Source: an uncultured delta proteobacterium (GTDB taxonomy: Bacteria > Desulfobacterota > Binatia > Binatales > Binataceae). Taken from it: a DNA stretch of 64,000 nt. The DNA is taken from the NCBI GenBank assembly GCA_963833025.1, contig CAWHWI010000003.1, positions 618,338-682,337 of the forward strand. Reading direction: 5' to 3'. Numbering within the stretch: position 1 is the first letter of the stretch; every line of letters starts with the position of its first letter. The position numbers and the translations under genes were made by a program. Under the pieces are notes generated by a model, which worked only from the letters and a program-made list of their open reading frames with translations, was not told the origin of the DNA and ran no database searches. Positions 888-61,374 of this stretch are shown one piece after another.

Positions 888-1033
888 CCTCTACTTCATT
901 GAACCGCACCCTCCACGCGACTGCAAGCACGCTCTTCGGACACTGTCCACCGGTCAGTAATCACTGGACTAATCAACGCGCGACTTGAGCGCATCCTGAT
1001 ACACTTCGCGACGCGTCGACCTTCCCCCAAGCT

Positions 1034-1160
1034 GTTCTAACAGGGACGAAGTCCCGCATCTTTATCTTAGTACTGGGTGCAGGGGTCACCCCTGCCCAAG
1101 GAGGTGTGGAACCCACGGTGGGTTCCACGTTTCAATTAAATGATTTACCCTTCCCCCTCC
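1034..1160 (+). repeat. multi-hairpin intergenic repeat element, copy 1 (modules B-C-D plus tail)
   Basis: Contains ctaacagggacgaagtcccgcatc, gcaggggtcacccctgc and gtggaacccacggtgggttccac followed by an attaaatgattt-cccttcc tail. Homologous to copies at 22803, 34116, 59631 and 60714. Confidence 0.85.
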
Positions 1161-2023
1161 TCGCTCGATTTGATCGCCCCCTGATACACTTCGCGACGCC
1201 CCATCCCGGTCAGCCGCGCGATCACCGCGCTCGCCTGTTTCAGCCCAAGTCCGGCCTCACGCAGCACCTCGAGCGCTTCATGCACGTCGATTGCGACGTT
1301 TCCCGCGTCCGGCTGCTCCGGCGCGCCCGCGACGACGATTACGATTTCTCCGAGCGCCGGCGTCGCGCGAAACCGCCGTTCCAGCTCACCGAGCGTCCCG
1401 CGCAACGTGCGCTCGTAGGTCTTGGTGATTTCGCAGACGACCGCCGCATCGCGCGATTCCCCGAATGCGGCCGCCATTGCGCCAATCGTATCGGCGACCC
1501 GACGCGCCGCTTCGTAAAAAACCATCGTGCGCGGCTCGCGACGCAGTTCTTCGAGCACCTTGCGTCGCGCCGCGTCGCGGGCCGGAACAAATCCCTCGAA
1601 GGTGAACTTGTCAGTCGGGATTCCCGCAATCGACAGCGCCGCGATCGCCGCCGACGCTCCCGGCACCGCGACGACTCGCACATTTGCCTCCAACGCCGCC
1701 CGCACCAGCCGAAAGCCGGGATCCGAAATCGCGGGCGTGCCCGCGTCGGTGACAAGCGCGATTTTTTCGCCCGCCTTCAGTCGCTCGACGAGCTCCGGCA
1801 CGCGCCGCTCTTCGTTGTGCTCGAAGTGGCTTACCGTCGGCGTGCGAATCTGATGGCGCGCGAGCATCTGCCCGGTGCGCCGCGTGTCCTCGCATGCGAT
1901 CAGCGCGACCTCCGCGAGCGTGCGGATCGCGCGCGCCGAGAGATCGTCGGGATTCCCGATCGGCGTCGCGACCACATACAAAATTCCGCCGGCCTCGGTT
2001 TGTCTATTTGCGCGAGTCGCCAT
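1145..2023 (-). CDS. rsmI: 16S rRNA (cytidine1402-2'-O)-methyltransferase
   Basis: ILYVVATPIGNPDDLSARAIRTL...ACEDTRRTGQML, tetrapyrrole-methylase fold typical of RsmI. Confidence 0.88.
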   Translation of the reverse strand: MATRANRQTEAGGILYVVATPIGNPDDLSARAIRTLAEVALIACEDTRRTGQMLARHQIRTPTVSHFEHNEERRVPELVERLKAGEKIALVTDAGTPAISDPGFRLVRAALEANVRVVAVPGASAAIAALSIAGIPTDKFTFEGFVPARDAARRKVLEELRREPRTMVFYEAARRVADTIGAMAAAFGESRDAAVVCEITKTYERTLRGTLGELERRFRATPALGEIVIVVAGAPEQPDAGNVAIDVHEALEVLREAGLGLKQASAVIARLTGMGRREVYQGAIKSSEEGEG

Positions 2024-2060: not shown

Positions 2061-2924
2061 GTGGCCGCAGGCAAAGCTACTCTCCTCATCTCGTGCATCG
2101 ACCGCCCCGGCATCATCGCCCGCGTCGCCACCCACCTGTTCACGCTCGGCTGCAATATTATCACCTCCGACCAGTACTCCGACGACGAGGACGGCCACTT
2201 CTTCTGGCGCATTCACTTCGAAAGCCTGCGGCTCCCCGTCGGTGAGCTCTCAAAAGAACTCGACGCGTCGATGCCCTCGTTGTTGCCGTGGGAGCGCCTC
2301 AAATGGGCTTGCTTCGACGCCGCCAAACGCGACCGCCTCGTCATTATGGTCTCGCGCCTGCCGCACTGCATGATGGATCTGTTGAGCCGCCATCACGTCG
2401 GCGAGCTCGACGGCGACGTGGTGGGAGTCGTCAGCAATCATCCCGACCTCAAGTCGCTGGTGCGCCCGTTCGAAGTCCCGTTCAAGGTGATTCCGGTTGA
2501 GAAGGATAGCAAGTCGGAGGCGGAAGCCGCGCTCATGAAGCATCTGGTTGAGCTTGGCGCGGACACCGTCGTGCTCGCGCGCTACATGCAGGTGTTATCG
2601 GGCGAATTCCTTCGCGCATGGAACAAGCCGATCGTCAACATTCACCACAGCTTCCTGCCCGCGTTCGCCGGCCAGCGCCCGCACAAGCAGGCGCACGACC
2701 GCGGCGTGAAACTAATCGGCGCGACCGCCCACTACGTGACCGAAGAACTGGACGCCGGCCCGATAATCGCGCAGGCCACCGCTCCGATGACCCATCGCGA
2801 CACCGTCGCCGACCTCGCCCGCAAGGGCAAAGATCTGGAAGTGATGGTCCTGGCCAAAGCCGTCCGAGCCCACCTGAAAAAACAGGTGCTCCTGCACCAT
2901 AACCGAACAATAGTCTTCGAGTAA
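2061..2924 (+). CDS. purU: formyltetrahydrofolate deformylase
   Basis: N-terminal ACT-domain region LLISCIDRPGIIARV and C-terminal formyltransferase motif HHSFLPAF...LIGATAHYVTEELDAGPII. GTG at 2061 with GGAG upstream gives 287 aa. Confidence 0.85.
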   Translation: MAAGKATLLISCIDRPGIIARVATHLFTLGCNIITSDQYSDDEDGHFFWRIHFESLRLPVGELSKELDASMPSLLPWERLKWACFDAAKRDRLVIMVSRLPHCMMDLLSRHHVGELDGDVVGVVSNHPDLKSLVRPFEVPFKVIPVEKDSKSEAEAALMKHLVELGADTVVLARYMQVLSGEFLRAWNKPIVNIHHSFLPAFAGQRPHKQAHDRGVKLIGATAHYVTEELDAGPIIAQATAPMTHRDTVADLARKGKDLEVMVLAKAVRAHLKKQVLLHHNRTIVFE

Positions 2925-3000: not shown

Positions 3001-4488
3001 TTACGTCGGTCCGGTAAAAAAACTCAGCGACCGATTCGCAAACGAAATGATTGGCGACCAGTACAGCCCGAACACGATCGTCGCGCAGGCCAGCACTCCC
3101 ATCAGCCCGTAATTCCACGCCTCGAAGCGTACAGTCCCCTCGTCGCCTCGCGGCTGCTCGAAGAACATCATCCGGATCGGCTTCAAGTAGTAATACAAAG
3201 ACACTACTGAATTGAGTATTCCAACAATAGCCAGTATGTAGAACTGACCTTTAATCACAGCAGCAAACAAATAGAATTTCCCGATAAACCCGACCGTCAA
3301 TGGGATACCCGTTAGTGAAAAGAGAAATATAGTCAGTGCGAGCGCCGGAACGATTCCGCCGCGCCACGCCAGCCCGCGATACGCCTCCACATCCTCGCGC
3401 CCGGTCGAGTTCGCCACGATCATCACCACCAGAAACGCGCCCGCATCCATTACATAGTAGGCAAACAGGTAGAAGAGCATCGCGCGAATGCCGTCGTTCG
3501 ACAGCACGACGAATCCCATCAGCGCGTATCCCGCCTGCGCGATACTCGAATACGCCAGCAGCCGCTTCATGTTGGTCTGCTGCAGCGCCGCAAGGTTGCC
3601 GAGCGTCATCGTGATGATGCAAACGAACAGCAGCAGTTGCGGCCAATCGACGCCCGCAAGAGCCGTCCAGCTTCCGCCCGCCGCCAGATGGGAAATCGCG
3701 GGAAAGAAAAATCGCGTCAGCAGCGCAAAGCCCGCCGCCTTCGATCCGATCGCCAGGAACGTCGTGATTGGAATCGGCGCGCCCGTGTAAACGTCCGGCG
3801 CCCACATATGAAACGGCACCGACGACACCTTGTAACCCATCCCGGTCAGGATCAGCACCAACGCGATAAACACGGCGAGCACCGGCAGATGCGCCGGCGT
3901 CGACAGCGCCTTGTTGATCACGCTGAAGTCGAGCGAGCCGGTGATTCCGAAAATCCAGCTCATCCCATAAATCATCGTGCCCGAAGCCACGCCGCCGTAA
4001 ATCAGGTACTTCAGCGCCGCTTCGAGCGAGCGCCGGTTATGCCGCAAAAAACCCGTCAGTATGTACGACGTCAGGCTGACGAACTCAAGCGCGAGATACG
4101 CCATCAGCAGGTTCGCCGACTCCGCCATCAAAAACATCGCAAACGTGCTCGCGAGCAAAATCGCGTAGTACTCGCCCTGGTCGCAGCCTCTCACTTCTTC
4201 CGAGCCAATCGACATCCAGATAGCCACGACCGCAGCCAGTGCGATCAGCGCGCGGAAATAAATCGCGAACGAATCGAACACCAGCATCCGATGGAACAGC
4301 CACGCGCCCGACGACGCCGGCTCCAGGCCAATCGCCACCAACGACGCCGCAGCCGCTATCAGTGCCAGCGCGCCGAGACGCAACTTGTCGCTCACCGCAA
4401 GATCGATGATCACGATGCCCAAAATCCCGGCCACCAGGATCATCTCCGGGACGAAATGTTTCAGGCTCGCGAAGTTTCCGAGATCCAT
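3001..4488 (-). CDS. nuoN: NADH-quinone oxidoreductase subunit N
   Basis: 495-aa polytopic membrane protein MDLGNFASLKHFVPEMILVAGILG...; last gene of the nuo operon. Confidence 0.93.
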   Translation of the reverse strand: MDLGNFASLKHFVPEMILVAGILGIVIIDLAVSDKLRLGALALIAAAASLVAIGLEPASSGAWLFHRMLVFDSFAIYFRALIALAAVVAIWMSIGSEEVRGCDQGEYYAILLASTFAMFLMAESANLLMAYLALEFVSLTSYILTGFLRHNRRSLEAALKYLIYGGVASGTMIYGMSWIFGITGSLDFSVINKALSTPAHLPVLAVFIALVLILTGMGYKVSSVPFHMWAPDVYTGAPIPITTFLAIGSKAAGFALLTRFFFPAISHLAAGGSWTALAGVDWPQLLLFVCIITMTLGNLAALQQTNMKRLLAYSSIAQAGYALMGFVVLSNDGIRAMLFYLFAYYVMDAGAFLVVMIVANSTGREDVEAYRGLAWRGGIVPALALTIFLFSLTGIPLTVGFIGKFYLFAAVIKGQFYILAIVGILNSVVSLYYYLKPIRMMFFEQPRGDEGTVRFEAWNYGLMGVLACATIVFGLYWSPIISFANRSLSFFTGPT

Positions 4489-14058: not shown

Positions 14059-14099
14059 CTAAGGAAACAATATCCTGCCCGCACAACGCCCGCAATTCA

Positions 14100-14510
14100 G
14101 GCAGAATCAAGCGCGGGGCTGCGCGCCCCGCACCCGCGGCAGGGGTGACCCCTGCACCCGGTACGGGGAGAAGAGGCGGCCTTCGCCCTATTCCTAACCT
14201 CTCCTTGTCCGAGGAGAGGTCGGCGCGAGCCGAAGGTGAGCGACGGGAGAGGTGCAACGCTGGCCGAACAGTTGCGCGTATTTGTGCTGCTGTCGGGCGG
14301 TGGAGTCAGTGTCTTTGCATTGCGGTTAAACGAGTCGGTCTGGTGGGCTGTCAGGCGTTGCACCTCACCCGGCGACACCGCTGCGCGGCTTACGCCGACC
14401 TCTCCTCGGACAAGGAGAGGTTAGGAACAGCGCGTCAGCCCGCATCTTTCTTCTTTCTTGAAACTGGGTGCAGGGGTCACCCCTGCCGAGGGTGCGGGGC
14501 GAGGAGCCCC
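14100..14510. repeat. composite foldback element with ~115-bp inverted-repeat arms, each containing an A-module and a C-like hairpin, around a ~170-bp centre
   Basis: Left arm 14100-14220 is the reverse complement of right arm 14394-14510. Both include cctaacctctcc..ggagagg and gcaggggt(c/g)acccctgc. The centre has a nested inverted repeat ggtgcaacgc / gcgttgcacc. Confidence 0.8.
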
Positions 14511-14514
14511 GCGT

Positions 14515-14748
14515 CTAATTCTTCCTCCAGCGCTCGCGGACGTCGAGCGCTGGCCCCGCCAGCGGGTTGCCGACCAGTAGCAGAAGTCCGACCGCGCCGA
14601 CCGCCAGCCCGCATCCAAGCCACCAGAGCGAGCGGTACTCGACGCCGAGTGCCAGCATCGCCAGCGCCCACAACGGAATGATTAGCGAGGCGACGAAGCG
14701 CATCAGCGCGCTAATCGCATGCTCGGCCTGTTCAGCGCGGTCATCCAT
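14515..14748 (-). CDS. small membrane protein (2 predicted TM helices), hypothetical
   Basis: 77-aa ORF with hydrophobic segments LIIPLWALAMLALGV and LAVGAVGLLLLV; stop abuts the foldback element. Confidence 0.4.
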   Translation of the reverse strand: MDDRAEQAEHAISALMRFVASLIIPLWALAMLALGVEYRSLWWLGCGLAVGAVGLLLLVGNPLAGPALDVRERWRKN

Positions 14749-20488: not shown

Positions 20489-21541
20489 TCACCTGTCCAC
20501 GTGCTCCGTGTAAGGACTGGAAAAGACGAATTCCGTGACGTCGCCCGCGGTCGTGATTCGCCCCACCTTGCCGTTGGGCTCGGTGAACCAGAGGTTGCCG
20601 TCGGGGCCGGCCGTGATGAAAGTTGCCATCGACTTTGCGGGCATCGGGAACGCCGTGAAGTCGCCGCCGGGAGTCAGGCGATAGATCAGTTGCGCGCGAA
20701 TCACAGTGATCCAGAGATTTTTGTCGGCGCCCGCCGCGATTCCGAGAGGCACTCCTGTCGTGGGCAGCGCGAACTCCGTGATGAAACCGTCGGGTGTGAT
20801 CCTGCCAATTTTGCTGGCCTGCGGCTGGGTGAACCACACGTTACCGTCGGCGCCTAGCGCCATCATCGCGGGGCGGCTGTCGGGCAGCAGGATTGCGAAT
20901 TCCTTGACGTTCCCCGAGATGGTGACGCGCGCGATACGATTAACCTTGTCTTCGGCGAACCACAGATTGCCGTCGCTGCCACCGACTATTTCGGCGGGAC
21001 CCGTCCCCTTGAGCAGCTCGATCTCGGTCAGAGTGCCGGTGGTGCTGAGGCGTCCGATGCGATTGCCGGAATGCTCGGTGAACCACAAATTGCCGTCGCG
21101 ACCCGAAGTGATTCCCGCCGGTCCGCTGTCCGAATGAGGCAATTTGACGTACGCGATTTTTCCGTCGGGAGCGACGCGGCCGATGCGGTTGCCGAGCGTA
21201 TCGGTGAACCACACTGCGCCGTCGGGGCCGGCGGTGATTCGCTCGGCGAATCCGTCGGGATCGATCCGAAAACGCTTGGTGGCGCCGTACGGAGTCATCT
21301 GTCCTATCGCGTCGCCCTGGTACTCGGTGAACCACAGGTTGCCGTCGAGGCCCGCCGTGATTGCGTACGGCGCATGCGTGCCGACGGGCGCTCCGGTCGG
21401 CGTCGGCTGCGCGCTCGGAACGGCCGCGGCGCTGATGTTCCCCGAGGGCGACGGTCGCTTCGCGGCGCATCCCGCTACGATCGCGAGCGCGGCGGCAAAA
21501 ATCGTGACCGTCAGTGCGCGGCTGATCGAGGGATTGCTCAA
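20489..21541 (-). CDS. Vgb (streptogramin lyase)-like beta-propeller lipoprotein; likely TTG start at 21541 overlapping upstream stop (TTGA)
   Basis: Signal peptide with lipobox AIVAGC and repeated DGNLWFTE propeller motifs. Confidence 0.68.
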   Translation of the reverse strand: MSNPSISRALTVTIFAAALAIVAGCAAKRPSPSGNISAAAVPSAQPTPTGAPVGTHAPYAITAGLDGNLWFTEYQGDAIGQMTPYGATKRFRIDPDGFAERITAGPDGAVWFTDTLGNRIGRVAPDGKIAYVKLPHSDSGPAGITSGRDGNLWFTEHSGNRIGRLSTTGTLTEIELLKGTGPAEIVGGSDGNLWFAEDKVNRIARVTISGNVKEFAILLPDSRPAMMALGADGNVWFTQPQASKIGRITPDGFITEFALPTTGVPLGIAAGADKNLWITVIRAQLIYRLTPGGDFTAFPMPAKSMATFITAGPDGNLWFTEPNGKVGRITTAGDVTEFVFSSPYTEHVDR

Positions 21542-22725
21542 TTGACGATCCGATTGGCTCTCAACTCGGAAATCTCGCCCGCGCCGAATCCGAACTCGCC
21601 GAGAATTTCGTCGGTGTGCTGTCCCAGGTCGGGCGCATGGCGCCATAACTCCGGCTCGGTGCGCGAAAATCGCGCGGGCGATCGCACGGCGCGGACGCGT
21701 CCCGCCCGTGGATGCTCGTATTCGAAAAACGTTTCATTCGCGACGAACTGCGGATCGTTCCAGATCGAGTCGTAGTCGTTGACCGGCCCGCATGGAACGT
21801 CGGCGGCCTCGATCCGCTCGAGCCAATACGCAGAGGGCTGAGTCGGGAACAGCGTGATCAGGCTCTTGATCGATCGCCTCACTCGGTCCGGCCGCGGCTC
21901 GTCGCCTTCGAACCATTCCGGATGCCCAACCGCCTTGAGAATCGCCGTCCAATGCTTGTCGGTCAGCGGTGCAATCGTAATGAAGCCGTCCGCCGTCTGA
22001 AACGGCTCGAGCGTGTTCATCGACGGTGGCACGCCGGCGTCGTGCGGAAGATAAGTGTGGCGCGACGCCGTGTCGGGCATCAGGTAGTAGGCGACGGCGT
22101 CGATCATCGCGATCTTGAGATGCTGTCCTTTGCCACTGCGCTGCGACTCGGTCAGCGCCGCGAGTATCGAAATTGCTGCCGTCATGGCAGTGACCTTGTC
22201 GCCGAGAATATTCTTGACGGCGCGCGGCCGGCCCTGCGTGCGCTGCGAGGTCATCACTCCCGCCATCCCCTGGATAATCGGATCGTAAGCGGGCTTGTTG
22301 ACCGACGGCCCCGAAAAACCGTAGCCGGCGATCGAGCAATAGACAATTTTCGGATTGCGCGCCGCGACCGCCTCGTAGCCGACGCCCAGCCGATCGACAA
22401 CTCCGGGCCGTACGTTCTGCACGACGACGTCGGCCCGCTCAGCCATCTTGAGAAAGACCTCAGCGGCGCCCGGCTGCTTGAGGTCGAGCATCATCGCGCG
22501 CTTGTTGCGATTCCAGTTCAGGATGCTCACCGTGACGCCGCCACGCTCGCGCCCGGTCAGCATCCGCGACACGTCGCCGTCGGGCGGCTCGATTTTTATT
22601 ACGTCGGCGCCGAGGTCACCGAGCATCATGGTGCAGAACGGTCCCGACACCACCATGCTCAAATCAAGTACGCGGATTCCTTCCAGCGGTCCCATCGATG
22701 CCTCCGGGAAAATTGCTCCAAGCAC
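21538..22725 (-). CDS. CoA transferase family III (CaiB/BaiF)
   Basis: GIRVLDLSMVVSGPFCTMMLGDLGADVIKIEPP signature. Confidence 0.85.
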   Translation of the reverse strand: MLGAIFPEASMGPLEGIRVLDLSMVVSGPFCTMMLGDLGADVIKIEPPDGDVSRMLTGRERGGVTVSILNWNRNKRAMMLDLKQPGAAEVFLKMAERADVVVQNVRPGVVDRLGVGYEAVAARNPKIVYCSIAGYGFSGPSVNKPAYDPIIQGMAGVMTSQRTQGRPRAVKNILGDKVTAMTAAISILAALTESQRSGKGQHLKIAMIDAVAYYLMPDTASRHTYLPHDAGVPPSMNTLEPFQTADGFITIAPLTDKHWTAILKAVGHPEWFEGDEPRPDRVRRSIKSLITLFPTQPSAYWLERIEAADVPCGPVNDYDSIWNDPQFVANETFFEYEHPRAGRVRAVRSPARFSRTEPELWRHAPDLGQHTDEILGEFGFGAGEISELRANRIVN

Positions 22726-22802
22726 TGCCGATCAAACGGCGCAGCCAGTGTTGCTTATAGTTCAACCCTCATTCGACTCACAACGACCTGACGTTTTCCC
22801 CC

Positions 22803-22912
22803 TCTAACTTTTAACAGGGACGAAGTCCCGCATCTTCTCTTAATACTGGGTGCAGGGGTCACCCCTGCCGAAGGAAGCGTGAAACCCACCGCGGGTTTCA
22901 CATCTAATTACG
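22803..22912 (+). repeat. multi-hairpin intergenic repeat element, copy 2 (B-C-D)
   Basis: ttttaacagggacgaagtcccgcatc...gcaggggtcacccctgccgaaggaagcgtgaaacccaccgcgggtttcac. Confidence 0.85.
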
Positions 22913-24449
22913 TGAACCGCCCACTCTTGACTGCGATTTCGCGCAGCTTCACGACGCGCGATTGTATCGCGCGGCTCCGGCGCATCCGCTCCAGCGTCAG
23001 CGGTATCCGATACGTCCAGTTCGAATCGCTGATCGTTCCCGGCCGATTGATTCGCGCACTCCATCCGAACAAATCCTGAATCGGAATGATCACCAGCTGC
23101 GACGGCGCCGCATACAGCATGGCCAGGATTGCATCGCGCGCCGATTCCTCGAGCATCCGGCGCGGATTCACTTTGCCCTCGAGCCCGAGCTCGCGCACGA
23201 ACTTCTCGCGCTCTGCGATAGGCTGCGAATGCCACCAAACGGTCAGAGGTTCAGTGTCATGCGTGCCGGTAGTCGCGAGCGAAAGTTCGGGATAGGTCGA
23301 CGGGCCGAGAAATGGTTCGTCGGCGTGGCCCCAGTCGCGCTCCCACTGCATCACCTTATATCCCGGCACGCCCAGCCGCGTGAGCGATTGGCGCACCCAC
23401 GGCGGCACGGTGCCGAGGTCTTCCGCGATCAGCTCGGTCGCCCCGACCTCCTGCTTGATAGTGCGAATCACTTCTTCGCCCTGGCGCAGTTGATCGACTT
23501 CGTCTATCGGCGTGAAAATTCCCGGCGCGTCCAGTTCGGAGCCGAAATTGAAAGTTCGATAAAGCCCAACGACGTGATCGATTCGAAGCAAATCGTAAAG
23601 CGCGCTGGCATGACGCGCACGCGCGCGCAGCACCTTGAATCCCTCCGCGCGCATCTGAGACCAGTTCGGCAGCGGCAGGCCCCATCGCTGTCCCTTGGGA
23701 TTGAAACCGTCGGGGGGAGCGCCCACGGTGCGCGACAAATCGAACTCGCCCTGGTTTGCCCACACCTCGGCGCTGTCGCTGCACGGCGAGAACGCGAGAT
23801 CTCCGCCGATAAACGCGCCGTGCGACGATGCGTACGCGCGCATCTCCGACCACTGCCGATGCGCGACGAACTGCCAGTGGCAGTACATCTCGATCGCGTC
23901 GGCCAGATCGCGGCGCGCGAGCGCGAGCGCGGCGGAATCGCGCTTCGCAATTTCAGCCGGCCACGTTTCCCAGCTGGTCCAGTTGAAGCGCTCCTTGAGC
24001 GCGCGAAACAGCGCATAGTCATGAAGCCAGTACGAGTTGGCCTCGATGAAGGCGTCGAGCTGCGCGCCGTCATCGCGTCCGCCGCGCGCGCGAGTCGCCC
24101 GGTACGCGCGCTCGAGCAACACAAACTTCTCCCGCCGTGTGATCGCGCGCGGCACAAAGCGCGCCTTCCCGACCGCCTGGCGTGCGCGCGCCTGCACGAC
24201 CCGCCCGACTCCCGGCAGCCCGCTTACCGATATGTACATCGGATCGATCGCCATCACGCTCATCGCGCTGTACGGGCTGAGATCGTCAGGCCCCGTCTCG
24301 TCCAACGGCAGCAGCTGAATCACGCGATGACCCATCGACAGCGCGAAGTCGATCATCGGCGCGAGACTGAGGATTTCGCCGCGTCCGAGATCGTCGCGCG
24401 TGCGAATCGAGAACAGTGGAATCAGGATTCCCGCGGACCGCGTCAGCAT
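22908..24449 (-). CDS. malQ: 4-alpha-glucanotransferase (amylomaltase, GH77)
   Basis: MLTRSAGILIPLFSIRTRDDLGRGEI...GDLAFSP...IIPIQDLFGW GH77 motifs. Confidence 0.9.
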   Translation of the reverse strand: MLTRSAGILIPLFSIRTRDDLGRGEILSLAPMIDFALSMGHRVIQLLPLDETGPDDLSPYSAMSVMAIDPMYISVSGLPGVGRVVQARARQAVGKARFVPRAITRREKFVLLERAYRATRARGGRDDGAQLDAFIEANSYWLHDYALFRALKERFNWTSWETWPAEIAKRDSAALALARRDLADAIEMYCHWQFVAHRQWSEMRAYASSHGAFIGGDLAFSPCSDSAEVWANQGEFDLSRTVGAPPDGFNPKGQRWGLPLPNWSQMRAEGFKVLRARARHASALYDLLRIDHVVGLYRTFNFGSELDAPGIFTPIDEVDQLRQGEEVIRTIKQEVGATELIAEDLGTVPPWVRQSLTRLGVPGYKVMQWERDWGHADEPFLGPSTYPELSLATTGTHDTEPLTVWWHSQPIAEREKFVRELGLEGKVNPRRMLEESARDAILAMLYAAPSQLVIIPIQDLFGWSARINRPGTISDSNWTYRIPLTLERMRRSRAIQSRVVKLREIAVKSGRFT

Positions 24450-24483
24450 CGTGGCAACTTATGCGGTCCGCAGTACCCGCGGT

Positions 24484-33214: not shown

Positions 33215-34105
33215 ATGCAAAACCCGCAGGAATACTATAAGAGCGAAGGGCCAATGACAGCTCTGGGAGCGCACGCGGAAGAATTCCGCGCGATGCCCAC
33301 GGACCTCGCCTCGCTATGCGAGGTCGTACAGGGCTTGCTGATTCATCGCGATATTGCGCCATGGCTGTACGGCCTCACGCTGACCGAGGCGCAGCGCGAC
33401 GACGGCAACATCCGCCCGATCGCGAAAATGCTGACGCGCATTCACGAGCTCGATTCGCGCCCGATCACGAGCGCGCGCGACGTCGGCCACCGGCTCCCCA
33501 GCGTATGCCGTCATTTTTCGCTGATGCTCAGCGCCATACTCCGGTATCAGGGCATACCGGCGCGGCCGCGATGCGGCTTCGGCGCCTACTTCACGCCGGG
33601 CAAGTTCGAAGACCATTGGGTGTGCGAGTATTGGAACGCCGGCGAGAAGCGCTGGATATTGGTGGACGCGCAGCTCGACTCGATTCAGCGCAAAGCCTTG
33701 AACATCAATTTCAACCCGCTCGACGTGCCGCGCGACCGCTTCATAATCGCGGGCAACGCGTGGCAGATGTGCCGCACCGGCGCCGCCGATCCCGCCAACT
33801 TCGGGCTCACGCACGTCCACCTGCAGGGGATGTGGTTCATCGCCGGCAACGTGGTCCGCGATCTCGCGTCGCTCAACAAAATGGAACTGCTACCATGGGA
33901 CGTCTGGGGCTTGATGGATATGAACGACGCCGCACTGACCGACGAGAAAAAATCCCTACTCGATCGCGTCGCAACTCTAACCCTCGCGGGCGACAACGCG
34001 TTCCCCGAAGTCCGCGCAATCTACAACGACGATCGCCTCCGCGTCCCACCACTTGTCTTCAACGCACTGCGCAACGCCCCCGAACCAATCGCGAGCGAGA
34101 ACTAA
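33215..34105 (+). CDS. transglutaminase-like cysteine protease domain protein (start may be ATG 33254)
   Basis: CRHFSLMLSAILRYQGIPARPRCGF...HWVCEYW...WILVDAQ, consistent with the Cys-His-Asp transglutaminase core. Confidence 0.72.
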   Translation: MQNPQEYYKSEGPMTALGAHAEEFRAMPTDLASLCEVVQGLLIHRDIAPWLYGLTLTEAQRDDGNIRPIAKMLTRIHELDSRPITSARDVGHRLPSVCRHFSLMLSAILRYQGIPARPRCGFGAYFTPGKFEDHWVCEYWNAGEKRWILVDAQLDSIQRKALNINFNPLDVPRDRFIIAGNAWQMCRTGAADPANFGLTHVHLQGMWFIAGNVVRDLASLNKMELLPWDVWGLMDMNDAALTDEKKSLLDRVATLTLAGDNAFPEVRAIYNDDRLRVPPLVFNALRNAPEPIASEN

Positions 34106-34115
34106 CGCTTAACAA

Positions 34116-34230
34116 GTTCTAACAGGGACGAAGTCCCGCATCTTCTCTTGGTACTGCGTGCAGGGGTCACCCCTGCCGAAGGAAGCGTGAAACCCACCGC
34201 GGGTTTCACATTCAATTGAGTTCCTCCGCC
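34116..34230 (+). repeat. multi-hairpin intergenic repeat element, copy 3 (B-C-D)
   Basis: gttctaacagggacgaagtcccgcatc...gcaggggtcacccctgccgaaggaagcgtgaaacccaccgcgggtttcacattcaattga. Confidence 0.85.
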
Positions 34231-34240
34231 CTCTCCTGTC

Positions 34241-35752
34241 TCACCGACCGCCCGCTGCTGGCGCCGGCGCCGCCGGGCGCGACGGCTTTGGCATGTGGAT
34301 GTAGAGCTTGTCCGCCGCCGGACGGCCGTCGGTATGCATCGACGGCGGACGCATCGCGTACTTCACTTCGCGCGCGTGCTCGGCGAACTGCCGATCCGGG
34401 TTGTACACGCTGTTGAACTTCCACAGCATCTTGATGAAGTTGGTCTGCCCCTTCAGCGCGAGCTTGCCCGCGATCGACGCTACCGACTTCAGCGCCGCGA
34501 ACCCAAGATGCTTGCGGTTGAGCACGTCCTGCGTCTTCACCAGCTCCTGGTAGAACTGCAGCAGCGGCAACTTGGTCGGCAGCACCGCGTGCTGGATGTC
34601 GTACAGCCGGTAGTCGAGCGTCGTCAGCTTGCGCGATTCGGTGAACCACAGCTCGGTGCCGGGATACGGCGTCGCCACCGTCAGATGAACGATCTCGGGG
34701 ATGCTGATCGCCCATTCGCGAATCACCTCGAAGCGCTTCACGTCCCACGACGGGTCCGCGATCAGGTTGACCGCGACGGTCAAGCCAATCTCGCGCGCCA
34801 CTTCGAGCGCCTTGAAGTTGACGCCCATCGACGAGCGCTTGCGATGCAGCTTCAGGCCTTCTTCGTCGATCGCTTCGAGGCCCAGGAACATGTACTCCAT
34901 GCCGAGCTTGCGCCAGTAGCGGAACACTTCCGGATTGCGGCACAGTACGTCGGCGCGAGTCTCGAGGTAGTACTGCTTTTTGATTTTGCGCTTTTCGATT
35001 TCGTGCCCGATCGCGAATCCATGCTCCGGATGGATGAACGCGACGTCGTCCACGATGAAGACGTTCGGCTCTTTGATCGACAGCATGTCTTCGGCCGCCG
35101 CTTCCGGCGTCGATTTGCGGTAGCTGCGTCCGTAAAACGTCCACGCGCTGCAGAACGAGCAATCCCACGGGCATCCGCGGGTGAACTCGATCGACGCGCA
35201 CGGATCGAGCACGCCGATAAAATATTTGTTGCGCCGGCGCCCGAGATCGCGCGCGGGAAAAAACTTGTCGAGATCGTCGAGCATGACCGGCGTCGGCCCG
35301 GAGCCTTGCGTCGTCAACACGCCCGGAACTTTGCCAATCGAGCCGGTGCCGATTGCGTCGAGGAGCATCGGGGTCGCCGTCTCGCCCTCGCCGCGGATGA
35401 CCGCGTCGATCGCGCCGTCCGCATGCTCCAGAATTTCGTCGGCGACGAAGGAGCCGCTGTGCCCGCCGGTGAAGACGAAGCAGTCCTTCATCAGGCGCTT
35501 CACGTCCTTGGCGAGATCGATCACCTCGGGCACGTTGGCGAGGTAGTTGAGCGAGAAGCCGACCGCATTGGGCCGGAAGCTCTCGAGCTCGGCAAACAGA
35601 TCACGATGCTTGAAAATCTGCAGGTCGAGGATTCTGACGTCATGGCCGGCCGCGCGCGTGGCCGCCGCCACCCGCTCCATTCCCAGCGGTTCGAGCCGCA
35701 AATAAATCTCGCTGTACATAAGCGGACTTGGATGTACGAATAGGACCCGCAT
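34241..35752 (-). CDS. B12-binding domain radical SAM protein (candidate hopanoid-associated HpnJ-like)
   Basis: N-terminal B12-binding region (VLFVHPSPLMYSEIYLRL) and CxxxCxxC motif FTRGCPWDCSFC. Lies near hpn genes. Confidence 0.78.
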   Translation of the reverse strand: MRVLFVHPSPLMYSEIYLRLEPLGMERVAAATRAAGHDVRILDLQIFKHRDLFAELESFRPNAVGFSLNYLANVPEVIDLAKDVKRLMKDCFVFTGGHSGSFVADEILEHADGAIDAVIRGEGETATPMLLDAIGTGSIGKVPGVLTTQGSGPTPVMLDDLDKFFPARDLGRRRNKYFIGVLDPCASIEFTRGCPWDCSFCSAWTFYGRSYRKSTPEAAAEDMLSIKEPNVFIVDDVAFIHPEHGFAIGHEIEKRKIKKQYYLETRADVLCRNPEVFRYWRKLGMEYMFLGLEAIDEEGLKLHRKRSSMGVNFKALEVAREIGLTVAVNLIADPSWDVKRFEVIREWAISIPEIVHLTVATPYPGTELWFTESRKLTTLDYRLYDIQHAVLPTKLPLLQFYQELVKTQDVLNRKHLGFAALKSVASIAGKLALKGQTNFIKMLWKFNSVYNPDRQFAEHAREVKYAMRPPSMHTDGRPAADKLYIHMPKPSRPAAPAPAAGGR

Positions 35753-36480
35753 TAGATTCCCTCCAGCGCCGCGTTTTTCAGACCCGCGACGCCTTCGCGC
35801 AATTCGCTAATCTTCGGTCGCGATTATCCCCGCCTGACCAATCGGCCAGTGGCGATTGGGAGCATCCTAATATTCTGACCGAGGCAATGAAATAGCGCCA
35901 CTGCGCCAAAACCGGCTTCGTGCTATTAATAGTTCTTATGGCCACGCGCGATGCTCCCCAGCCGGGCGGGTACCGATTCATCGCCGTTATTTTTATCGCG
36001 ATACTGATCGACGCCTTCCTGTTGGCGCAGGTGCACGCAAACTTTCTTCACGACCACGGCTACGACCCCTTCCCTCGACACCCCGCCGTCGCCAGGCTCG
36101 TACCACCCTGACGCCGCGGATTGCGCACCGAGTTCAGGGATGAACTGTTCAGCCTGACGCCGGCTGATTGGACCTGCTACACATAGAGCATGGACTACTG
36201 TCAGGATGCCGCAAACTCGCGCCGCTGGCACACAGTCGTGTGGAGCCCGCTTCCGACGAAAAATGAATTTTGACGGAACGAAGCTACCGATAGTGGCTGA
36301 GCCGTCTGAAGACACACCATATGGTATGAGATTGCTGTTTTCGACTGAACTCGGTTAGTCGAAAACGCCTGTATCTAAGTATGATCCCACCCCAATTCCA
36401 CCTTGACTCGCGAGCGCGAGCGCCGGAGTTTTGGCTCAAGGCTGACTATTCTAAAAAATCTAAAAAAATTCGGAGAAACC

Positions 36481-59603: not shown

Positions 59604-59630
59604 AAAAGTCTTCTCGTATTTCTTGTCCTG

Positions 59631-59797
59631 ATCCTAAGCTCTCCTTGTCCGAGGAGAGGTTAGGATCTTCCCCTTTACAAACTTCTAACAGGGACGAAGT
59701 CCCGCATCTTTCTTAGCACTGGGTGCAGGGGTCACCCCTGCCGAAGGAAGTGTGAAACCCACCGCGGGTTTCACATTAAACAATTGATTTCCCCTTC
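59631..59797 (+). repeat. multi-hairpin intergenic repeat element, copy 4, full length (A-B-C-D-tail)
   Basis: tcctaagctctccttgtccgaggagaggttagga...ctaacagggacgaagtcccgcatc...gcaggggtcacccctgc...gtgaaacccaccgcgggtttcacattaaacaattgatttcccc. Confidence 0.88.
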
Positions 59798-60649
59798 CTA
59801 TACATACAACGACGCGATCTTCTTCAGCGTCCCCTCCGCACTCTCGAACGTGAGAGCTCCCAACCCCGCGACAAACCGCCCCGCGCCCGCCGCGGCAAAC
59901 TCCTTCAGCCCGTCCTGCACCTGCGCGCGATCGCCGCGGATTCCGCCCATGATCGTGATGTCCAACTCCGCGAAATTCCTGCCGGCCGCCGCGCACTCGC
60001 GCTTGAGTTCATCGACGCGCGTTTTCAATTGCGCCGCGTTCAACGCGATAGGGCACCATCCGTCCGCCCACTTCGCCACGCGCTTGAGCGCGTTCTTGTC
60101 CAGGCTGCCGATCAGCACGGGAGGCCCCGACTTCTGCGCCGGTTTCGGCAGCGACTTCACCGGCGGAAACTTGACGTACTTGCCGTCGCATGACGATTGA
60201 TCTTCGGTCCACAGCTTGCGCATCGCGGCGACAATCTCGGCGGTTTCGCTCCAGCGATGAGGGAAATCGACGCCGAACAAATCGCTCTCCTCGCGCAGCC
60301 ATCCCGCGCCGATCCCGAACAGCAAGCGGCCGCCCGAGTACGTGTCCAGAGTCGCGATCTGCTTGGCCAGCGCAAGCGGCTCATGCTCCGGGACGAGACA
60401 GATTCCGGTGGCAAGTTTCAGATTTTTGGTAACCGCAGCCGCCATGCTGAGCGCGATCATCTGATCGGCCATCGTGAAGTACTGCGGCGGAATCGGCCCT
60501 CCGGTAGGAAACTGCTGGACGGGATTAGCGGGCATCGCCGGATGCTCAGGCACCCAAATCGACTCGAACCCAAGCGATTCTGCGACTCGTGCAAATTCCG
60601 CAGGATGAGCATTCGTGCCGGTGAACGGCGTCAGCAATCCAATTTTCAT
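59798..60649 (-). CDS. LLM class (luciferase-like) F420-dependent oxidoreductase
   Basis: MKIGLLTPF...LPKPAQ.. LLM fold; AAGGAG SD before ATG 60649. Confidence 0.8.
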   Translation of the reverse strand: MKIGLLTPFTGTNAHPAEFARVAESLGFESIWVPEHPAMPANPVQQFPTGGPIPPQYFTMADQMIALSMAAAVTKNLKLATGICLVPEHEPLALAKQIATLDTYSGGRLLFGIGAGWLREESDLFGVDFPHRWSETAEIVAAMRKLWTEDQSSCDGKYVKFPPVKSLPKPAQKSGPPVLIGSLDKNALKRVAKWADGWCPIALNAAQLKTRVDELKRECAAAGRNFAELDITIMGGIRGDRAQVQDGLKEFAAAGAGRFVAGLGALTFESAEGTLKKIASLYV

Positions 60650-60713
60650 TTTTTCTCTCCTTGTCAGAGTCCCCAGTTCTAACAAATCCTCCCGTGAATA
60701 ACCTCACGCCCGG

Positions 60714-60882
60714 GTCCTAACCTTTCCTTGTCCGAGGAGAGGTTAGGATCTTCCCCTAACAAAGTTCTAACAGGGACGAAGTCCCGCATCTTTTCTTAGT
60801 ACTGGGTGCAGGGGTCACCCCTGCCCAAGGAAGCGTGAAACCCAGGAGGAGTTTCACATTAAATTAAGTGATTTCCCGTTCC
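60714..60882 (+). repeat. multi-hairpin intergenic repeat element, copy 5, full length (A-B-C-D-tail)
   Basis: gtcctaacctttccttgtccgaggagaggttagga...gttctaacagggacgaagtcccgcatc...gcaggggtcacccctgc...gtgaaacccaggaggagtttcacattaaattaagtgatttccc. Confidence 0.88.
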
Positions 60883-61359
60883 CTATTTCCACCCGAAGAA
60901 ATCCTTCGCAGTGACGAACTTCGCGACGCCGGCTGCTTCGCCCGCCAGCCGGTCGACTTCCTGATCGCCGACCATTGTCGACGACGCCAGATCGACGCCG
61001 TACAAATCCGCGAGCTCCGTGATCATGCCGCCCTTCGGCTTGCGACATTCGCAGTAGTCGTCGTCCGTATGCTGGCAGACTTGCCATCCGGTCAGGATAT
61101 CGCCGAGTTGGTTGTCGAGTTCCTCGAGCGCAGCCTCGACTTTCTCCGCCGTGAGACGGCCGCGCCGGATTCCGGCCTGGTTGGTCACGACGAACATCAG
61201 ACGGTTATGCAGTGGCCGGAGCTTCTCGGCCACGCCGGGCAGCAGTTCGACTACGATATTTCCGTCGGCGTCGAGCGGAATCTCGCGCGACTCGTTCAGC
61301 TTGACGAGCGTGCCGCCCAGATCGAAGAACAGCGCCGCGTTGCCATTCGGATTGGCCAT
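60883..61359 (-). CDS. HAD-IIIA family phosphatase (GmhB/histidinol-phosphatase-like)
   Basis: FFDLGGTLV motif I and VTNQAG motif II. Confidence 0.72.
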   Translation of the reverse strand: MANPNGNAALFFDLGGTLVKLNESREIPLDADGNIVVELLPGVAEKLRPLHNRLMFVVTNQAGIRRGRLTAEKVEAALEELDNQLGDILTGWQVCQHTDDDYCECRKPKGGMITELADLYGVDLASSTMVGDQEVDRLAGEAAGVAKFVTAKDFFGWK

Positions 61360-61374
61360 CGAAAAAGATTTCGC

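Follow-up and report, generated by a model that had tools for sequence, protein, structure and literature searches.

The 64-kb stretch of DNA analyzed here (hereafter, the window) comes from Candidatus Binatus (Binataceae), and the closest homologs of its RsmI protein carry the name Candidatus Binatus sp. At the 3′ end of rsmI, encoding 16S rRNA C1402 2′-O-methyltransferase, two imperfect copies of a 34-nucleotide (nt) sequence enclose a member of a family of short hairpin repeats, termed BinRep here. The two copies are paralogous rsmI 3′ ends and not a transposon footprint. The locus was probably formed by recombination at a 20-nt core, which introduced a foreign rsmI tail along with an orphan gene of 438 codons and displaced the native tail, and BinRep later replaced the gene. 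Loci used for comparison are designated by L numbers, and the coordinates of the features are collected in Table 1.

The direct repeat at the 3′ end of rsmI

Alignment of positions 981–1014 with 1166–1199 gave 30 identical positions out of 34, and the longer alignment of 977–1014 with 1162–1199 gave 33 out of 38. The identical block comprises 20 nt (995–1014 and 1180–1199). Flank-to-flank local alignment around the enclosed BinRep copy (copy 1) scored 25.5, compared with a maximum of 11.5 in 200 shuffles. The imperfect direct repeat of about 34 bp that the first-pass annotation had described around copy 1 is therefore real, but its right copy starts at 1166 rather than 1160, and its core is 20 nt rather than 19 nt long. 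On the empty sites of about 35 related genomes, the aligned flanks of copy 1 overlapped by about 31 nt, and this is the true size of the target that is present twice.

The right copy lies inside rsmI and encodes ...GRREVYQGAIKS/RREVYQGAIKS. Among the 120 closest homologs, 115 have the C-terminus ...RREVYQDALK(S/A)R(D/V)DDSSDD, and tails with ...QGAIK... were found only in the clade of the window, where they also occur in L006/L021, L002, L087, and L088. The left copy reads as the common C-terminus of the homologs and is therefore the original rsmI end, now cut off. The second copy of the core forms the first 20 nt of this relic (995–1014), which contains an in-frame TAG at 971–969 and retains the original TGA at 956–954. 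Past the core, the relic has one mismatch over 24 nt to the functional native tails of L010, L020, and L047. The first-pass annotation had interpreted the site as an insertion footprint with a rebuilt RsmI C-terminus and had proposed a comparison of ortholog C-termini; the rebuilt end was borne out by this comparison, in which the ending was confined to the clade of the window.

Upstream of the core, the rsmI genes of the window, L087, and L021 were 92–100% identical to that of L007 in most 60-nt segments and 60–88% identical to those of the lineages carrying the 438-codon gene. The upstream part is native-type, and the switch from native to foreign sequence therefore sits at the core. Outside the clade of the window, the tail nearest to the foreign-type tail is that of L095, which carries the 438-codon gene.

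The first-pass annotation had assigned the last rsmI codons as a whole to the tail of the element. This was correct for GGG GAA GGG and the stop codon TAA (1156–1145, GEG-stop). An unrelated gene in L209 ends in ...PGEG-stop on the same BinRep tail, GGGGAAGGGTAAATCAC (a BinRep subfamily carries GGGGAAGGGTAAATCA), and the GEG-stop of RsmI was therefore supplied by BinRep. The AIKSSEE codons (1177–1157), in contrast, are not element sequence, and the QGAIK codons are also found in L006 without the element.

The locus in relatives and its probable history

In about 55 Binataceae species, rsmI is followed by aroQ with a spacer of 85–120 nt between them, and the conserved spacer sequence lies directly 3′ of the rsmI stop codon in about 55 aligned loci. 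L001/L007, with 93.6% DNA identity to the window over 11.9 kb, represent this common empty-site layout, consisting of one native tail (...DALKSCDDDSSDD-stop), an 85-nt spacer, and aroQ. L087 has the layout of the window, with in-gene QGAIKSGDEEEGEG-stop, BinRep, and the relic. BinRep also follows the QGAIK tail in L002–L005 and L088, the contigs of which terminate inside the repeat; BinRep appears to break short-read assemblies.

The same duplication was present in L006/L021 (94.15% DNA identity to the window), and their relic begins at the same base as that of the window (...AATAGAG followed directly by CGTCGCGAAG...). Between the copies, these loci contain a 1.37-kb low-GC stretch with two open reading frames (ORFs) that correspond to the 438-codon gene with a frameshift, and nhmmer detected no BinRep copy in this stretch. 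The relics of L006/L021, L087, and the window have a premature TAG and a T[AG]C codon in common. At the position of the junction sequence GTCGA of the window, L087 has GTCGGC and L006 has ...CCGGAATAGAG.

These loci bear on the claim of the first-pass annotation that BinRep had generated a target-site duplication, in which a repeat of about 140 nt would have transposed into the 3′ end of rsmI and left a duplication of about 32–34 nt whose copies then diverged. BinRep is located exactly between the copies with only 5–7 nt of other sequence, the flank overlap of about 31 nt on empty sites is that expected of such a duplication, and the family is clearly dispersed. However, L006/L021 have the same boundary and the same relic mutations around a protein-coding gene without BinRep, which largely refutes the model. 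Genomes lacking the element but sharing both the C-terminal residues and the flanking duplicate had been named beforehand as the observation that would speak against it, and the part on the duplicate was found in L006/L021. In addition, it is the copy still under selection that deviates from the consensus of the clade (D to G and L to I), and the dead copy is canonical. BinRep has no terminal inverted repeats, and its ends, CTTCCCC... and ...CCCTTCC, are direct-like in alignments of 30–43 copies. Flanks were compared for the 87 BinRep copies that had 80 nt or more of sequence on either side. A flanking direct repeat scoring above shuffles was present only at the rsmI sites of the window (25.5) and L087 (18.5), and the other copies scored 12 or less. 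Directly behind rsmI in L017 and L076, BinRep occurs in opposite orientations and replaces 27–50 nt instead of duplicating them. The absence of a flanking repeat in 85 of 87 copies and the replacement in L017 and L076 indicate that long duplications are not a product of BinRep. We consider a target-site duplication very improbable, and the duplication, which L006/L021 carry without the element, no longer serves as the direct evidence of element mobility for which it had been taken.

The intact 438-codon gene was found only between rsmI and aroQ, in L089–L095 and one further contig, and the gene forms only four clusters in a collection of 5.8 billion proteins. It starts 12–15 nt past the rsmI stop codon and ends on the TGA of TGACCGGTGGACAG, a sequence that is normally directly 3′ of rsmI. 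No duplication and no second core were detected at these loci. The rsmI tails in front of the intact gene are ...DALKSRDDDDADD-stop (DDDDADD-stop) or ...QEAIKSSEGDEVADD-stop, followed by AGGAGAA, a ribosome-binding site. The tail of L006, ...QGAIKVRGDDDAADD-stop, is also followed by AGGAGAA, and that of the window, ...QGAIKSSE, breaks off; both resemble the tails preceding the intact gene.

A different insertion of 1.8 kb with three ORFs was observed in the same rsmI–aroQ spacer in L035 (10900–12700) and L038, where it lies behind an intact native tail without duplication. The rsmI–aroQ gap is also enlarged in L051, L054, L058, L060, and L069.

The tails also bear on an origin by local tandem duplication, in which slippage or unequal exchange would have doubled the native tail, one copy would have diverged in place, and BinRep and the gene would have been inserted later. 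Only short sequences are concerned, small tandem duplications are common, and the core is identical in both copies. On the other hand, the L006 tail (VRGDDDAADD-stop), together with its ribosome-binding site and ATG, matches lineages without the duplication, which is difficult to obtain by divergence in place. The tail is otherwise strongly conserved (115/120) while the rest of rsmI differs by 5–8%, and the later insertions of BinRep and of the gene would both have had to hit precisely one point. This origin is scarcely credible.

The history that we regard as probable starts in the common ancestor of the window genome, L087, and L006/L021. As the comparison of these loci suggests, one recombination at GCGTCGCGAAGTGTATCAGG would have introduced a fragment of another Candidatus Binatus lineage that consisted of a foreign rsmI tail (Q-x-AIK...ADD-stop), the orphan gene 12–15 nt behind it, and the first spacer bases (TGACCGG). 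This may have occurred by a single crossover with a circularized fragment, or by repair of a one-ended break, in which the donor was copied and the product then end-joined. The recipient's own tail would have been pushed downstream intact, so that the core, foreign tail, and gene preceded a second core with the native tail, the spacer, and aroQ. Once displaced, the native tail decayed into a dead relic. Its premature TAG is common to all three lineages, which argues for a single event in their common ancestor. Subsequently, as far as the order can be deduced, the lineage of the window, L087, L002, and L088 would have lost the orphan gene, and BinRep would have come to lie between the truncated foreign tail and the relic, its end replacing the last codons with GEG-stop. 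Our guess is that BinRep was inserted behind rsmI and also behind the orphan gene, and that recombination between the two copies then removed the gene. As a net effect, the acidic tail of RsmI would be shorter, with the catalytic body preserved, and the conserved spacer upstream of aroQ would have been retained.

Several observations weigh against this history. A donor carrying precisely the QGAIK tail was not found, and over the 24 nt that follow the core, the in-gene copy is only slightly nearer to L095 (5 mismatches) than to native tails (6 mismatches). The foreign tails of the window and L021 differ at 10 of 24 positions as counted by eye, and two separate acquisitions of foreign tails may have taken place. 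No intermediate allele, such as rsmI–BinRep–gene–relic, was seen. The gap between BinRep and the relic is only 5–7 nt, and such a tidy replacement is not predicted by a simple deletion. The relic and spacer of L087 are nearer to those of L021 (94%) than to those of the window (92%), which marks the locus as mosaic, and parsimony is the basis on which the events were ordered. Finally, the sequence fits both proposed mechanisms of the first step alike, and the mechanism of recombination is not observable in it.

An alternative explanation is that the core is an attachment site, at which a recombinase acting in trans, or the orphan protein itself as a homing-type nuclease or recombinase, inserts cassettes with a replacement rsmI 3′ end. 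The insert with BinRep alone and the insert with the gene would then be alternative occupants of one site. Genomic islands are bounded by attL and attR at the 3′ ends of tRNA or protein-coding genes, and SCCmec is inserted at the 3′ end of rlmH/orfX. The rsmI locus resembles these systems in that the insert is at the 3′ end of an rRNA methyltransferase gene between direct repeats with an identical core, the native-to-foreign switch is at the core, and the incoming DNA provides a replacement 3′ end, so that the gene remains intact and its original end lies downstream of the insert. Moreover, the similarity extends from the core to the stop codon of the orphan gene, two different contents occur between the same repeats, and the orphan gene is patchily distributed and restricted to the rsmI–aroQ locus. 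In the C-terminal part of the 438-residue protein, a conserved D...E-V-K motif was recognized by eye, as in PD-(D/E)xK nucleases. Unlike in genomic islands, however, Pfam and PADLOC scans found no integrase or recombinase gene in the L006 insert or within 10 kb of it, where the neighbors are nuo, purU, aroQ, accB, and accC, and the insert is a single orphan gene or a 135-nt repeat. The orphan protein had no match in Pfam, PADLOC, PHROGs, NCBIfam, or a PDB profile search, and its AlphaFold model was unusable, with a predicted local distance difference test (pLDDT) score of 47. The intact gene copies in L089–L095 are not flanked by the core repeat, and the core was absent from 2.9 million viral contigs. 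The derived mutations common to the three relics point to one old ancestral event and not to recurrent integration. An attachment site is thus unlikely, though it is the least improbable of the alternatives.

The recombination that we favor resembles homology-facilitated illegitimate recombination and the formation of merodiploids or duplications upon uptake of related DNA, which have been reported for competent bacteria or for conjugation in E. coli (PMC3240628, PMC3784515). The cases have in common DNA from a related lineage, short identity on one side, a non-homologous join on the other, and recipient sequence that can be left duplicated. They differ in that the published events were laboratory observations and the present one is deduced from its scar, and in that the anchor here would be unusually short, namely 20 nt in DNA that is otherwise 60–88% identical.

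The BinRep family and stop codons

BinRep is about 135 nt long and contains three hairpins, and seven copies (five full and two partial) are present in the window. A metagenome scan with the central palindrome yielded at least 120 contigs with unrelated contexts, and nhmmer gave 186 hits in 215 loci, many of which span one or two of the three modules. In contrast to its abundance in the window, BinRep has no copy in the 20-kb loci L007 and L021, and L007–L071 contain just a few short matches to its modules. Across the hairpins, 97.9% of the cells were paired and 28 double-sided changes were counted, compared with 4.1 in shuffles (0/500), the central hairpin being invariant partly because it served as the search pattern. 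Compensatory changes thus maintain the three hairpins. No Rfam 15 family matched anywhere in the window at the gathering threshold, or in 900–1300 at E ≤ 10, and nothing was found in the literature on repeats in Binatus. BinRep is an undescribed family of the short interspersed hairpin-repeat kind.

The family is probably mobile, as supported by its presence or absence and its occurrence in both orientations at the rsmI site, and by its spread over unrelated loci. Pairs of filled and empty sites at other BinRep positions were not found among all 215 loci.

BinRep is associated with stop codons at one of its ends. When ORFs of at least 80 codons with coding-type GC content at third codon positions (GC3) were counted, a co-oriented stop codon was located within 30 nt of the BinRep tail in 42 of 86 copies, and inside the element in 22 of these. 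By the same measure, the opposite end gave 6 of 62. All five full copies in the window have one particular end at the stop codon of a gene. The copy at 22794–22927 and that at L123:877–960 are one and the same insertion of BinRep, located behind orthologs ending in ...LREIAV(K/R)SGRFT; the gene in the window stops right past SGRFT, and the L123 ortholog reads 8 codons further into BinRep. It is an old copy that has been kept.

There is a further reading, which we consider improbable, more so than an attachment site. According to it, BinRep would be a new orientation-specific element that seeks stop codons or is retained at them and rewrites the last codons, or the rsmI core would be the target of a recombinase-less cassette of a single gene, or both. 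BinRep could be mobilized as single-stranded DNA or via RNA, or could be a structured module of the 3′ untranslated region. The 438-residue protein could promote its own spread like a free-standing homing gene and co-convert the rsmI tail, in which case the duplication would have arisen as an aberrant product of homing.

MIRUs reportedly lie within operons, are oriented with the genes, and overlap stop codons. BinRep resembles REP/BIME, ERIC, and MIRU elements in being short, modular, and high-copy, in having compensated hairpins and a fixed orientation 3′ of genes, and in often providing the stop codon. It differs from them in having no sequence similarity to the described families and no Rfam match, and in its restriction to Binatus-like soil and peat bacteria; unlike MIRU, it is not a tandem repeat. 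With miniature elements derived from IS200/IS605 (palindrome-associated transposable elements), BinRep shares the lack of terminal inverted repeats and of detectable target duplication, a hairpin near each end, and a strong strand bias, but no conserved target tetra- or pentanucleotide could be defined beside one of its ends. To our knowledge, adjacency to stop codons is not a property of those miniature elements.

Two candidate signals at BinRep boundaries were rejected. A 12-nt repeat, GTATCAACAGGC, flanks the truncated element of L017, but it scored 12, less than the highest-scoring shuffle (14.5), and it overlaps sequence resembling the spacer of BinRep itself, so that it does not represent a second duplication. 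The 13-mer GGCGTCGCGAAGT occurs exactly at 1188–1200 and 60918–60930 on the minus strand, in different reading frames of two unrelated genes, 41–43 nt before the BinRep tail of copy 1 and of the copy at 60.8 kb; with up to one mismatch, 4 matches were found compared with 0.51 expected. It was absent from more than 70 other tail flanks and was rejected as a target-recognition motif; its sharing is treated as a coincidence.

Other structures related to BinRep were also observed. A composite inverted structure at 14099–14526 has arms at 14099–14162/14463–14526 (64 nt, 88%) and 14184–14232/14386–14434 (49 nt, 92%), built of partial BinRep central modules and a second palindromic module. A second short palindromic repeat (CCTAACCTCTCCTTGTCCGAGGAGAGGTTAGG) is located at 59627–59674, 60710–60757, 14187–14234, and 14388–14435; it adjoins the far end of two BinRep copies and is also found alone, and a similar palindrome lies at 2930–2950, just past the purU stop codon. 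In L088 (1190–1236), the third hairpin of BinRep contains extra sequence (gcgggcggagtttaccctgagtactcgtagggtccc).

Features of the window and significance of the locus

Over its first 12 kb, the window has 93–94% DNA identity to two metagenome-assembled genomes, CAVRUK01 (L007) and CAWDXY01 (L021). The local genes aroQ, rsmI, and nuoN are all on the minus strand, with purU as the exception. RsmI had 7881 homologs at E ≤ 1e-30, matched Pfam families PF00590 and PF23016, and is named RsmI at NCBI and JGI. The identity of aroQ was supported by PF01220 in the orthologous gene of L001, L006, and L087. A consensus scan of 850–1250 for promoters and terminators yielded nothing beyond a single weak hairpin of terminator type, which lies on the opposite strand from rsmI.

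Table 1. Coordinates of the rsmI locus, the BinRep copies, and the orphan gene (window positions unless a locus is given)
Feature	Position	Strand	Basis or remark
aroQ (type II 3-dehydroquinate dehydratase), conserved downstream neighbor	360–887	−	ORF list, tblastn synteny
Conserved rsmI–aroQ spacer (CCGGTGGACAG...CTTGCAGTCGC...GGTTCAATGAAG), intact, downstream of relic	888–953	−	
Relic of native rsmI 3′ end, RREVYQDALKSRVD-stop-SSDY-stop	954–1013	−	translation
Junction GTCGA (start of GTCGAC, 1015–1020) between far end of element and relic	1015–1019	.	
BinRep copy 1, three hairpins, co-oriented with rsmI	1020–1156	−	repeat families D1 and D5, alignments, nhmmer match 1020–1167
rsmI (16S rRNA C1402 2′-O-methyltransferase), 292 codons, C-terminus ...RREVYQGAIKSSEEGEG-stop	1145–2023	−	ORF list, homologs
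Foreign-type rsmI tail GGG GCG ATC AAA TCG AGC GAG GAG (G A I K S S E E)	1157–1180	−	
20-nt core, in-gene copy (GCGTCGCGAAGTGTATCAGG on minus strand)	1180–1199	−	native-type rsmI upstream, foreign-type downstream
purU	2061–2924	+	
nuoN	3001–4488	−	
Two partial BinRep copies (central hairpin module), inverted orientation	14137–14192, 14439–14492	−, +	
BinRep copy	22794–22927	−	stop of gene 22908–24458 (−) inside tail; no long flanking repeat
BinRep copy	34102–34235	−	gene 34241–35806 (−) ends 6 nt past outer edge (34235); no long flanking repeat
BinRep copy	59667–59800	−	stop of gene 59798–60703 (−) at tail edge; no long flanking repeat
BinRep copy	60750–60883	−	stop of gene 60883–61374 (−) at tail edge; no long flanking repeat
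438-codon orphan gene	L006:3919–5236		frameshifted
438-codon orphan gene	L089:230–1546		
438-codon orphan gene	L095:294–1613		

Two further repetitive regions were observed in the window. Within the ORF 20489–21733 (−), positions 20552–21363 contain 7–8 in-frame repeats of 123–126 nt with the motif ...GTGAACCACAG.TTGCCGTCG..., which are probably blades of a repeat protein. Between 29149 and 31425, there are 4–5 tandem paralogous genes of about 155–230 codons each (repeat families D2, D6, D8, D13, and D15).

The scar at rsmI is of the ordinary kind that recombination between related lineages leaves behind, and it illustrates that direct repeats on either side of a repeat element are not necessarily its product. 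Had there been no sister genome, the rsmI site would have been taken for a long target-site duplication, and a wrong view of how BinRep moves would have resulted. The repeat also affects the annotation of C-termini in metagenome-assembled genomes of Binatus, with 22 of 86 genes terminating inside it, and its stop-codon habit is unusually strict and worth systematic study. The rsmI–aroQ spacer is a recurrent gene-gain site, and the locus in the window records, in compact and datable form, the gain of a gene, the displacement of a gene end, pseudogenization, and replacement by a repeat in a recombining population of uncultured soil Candidatus Binatus.

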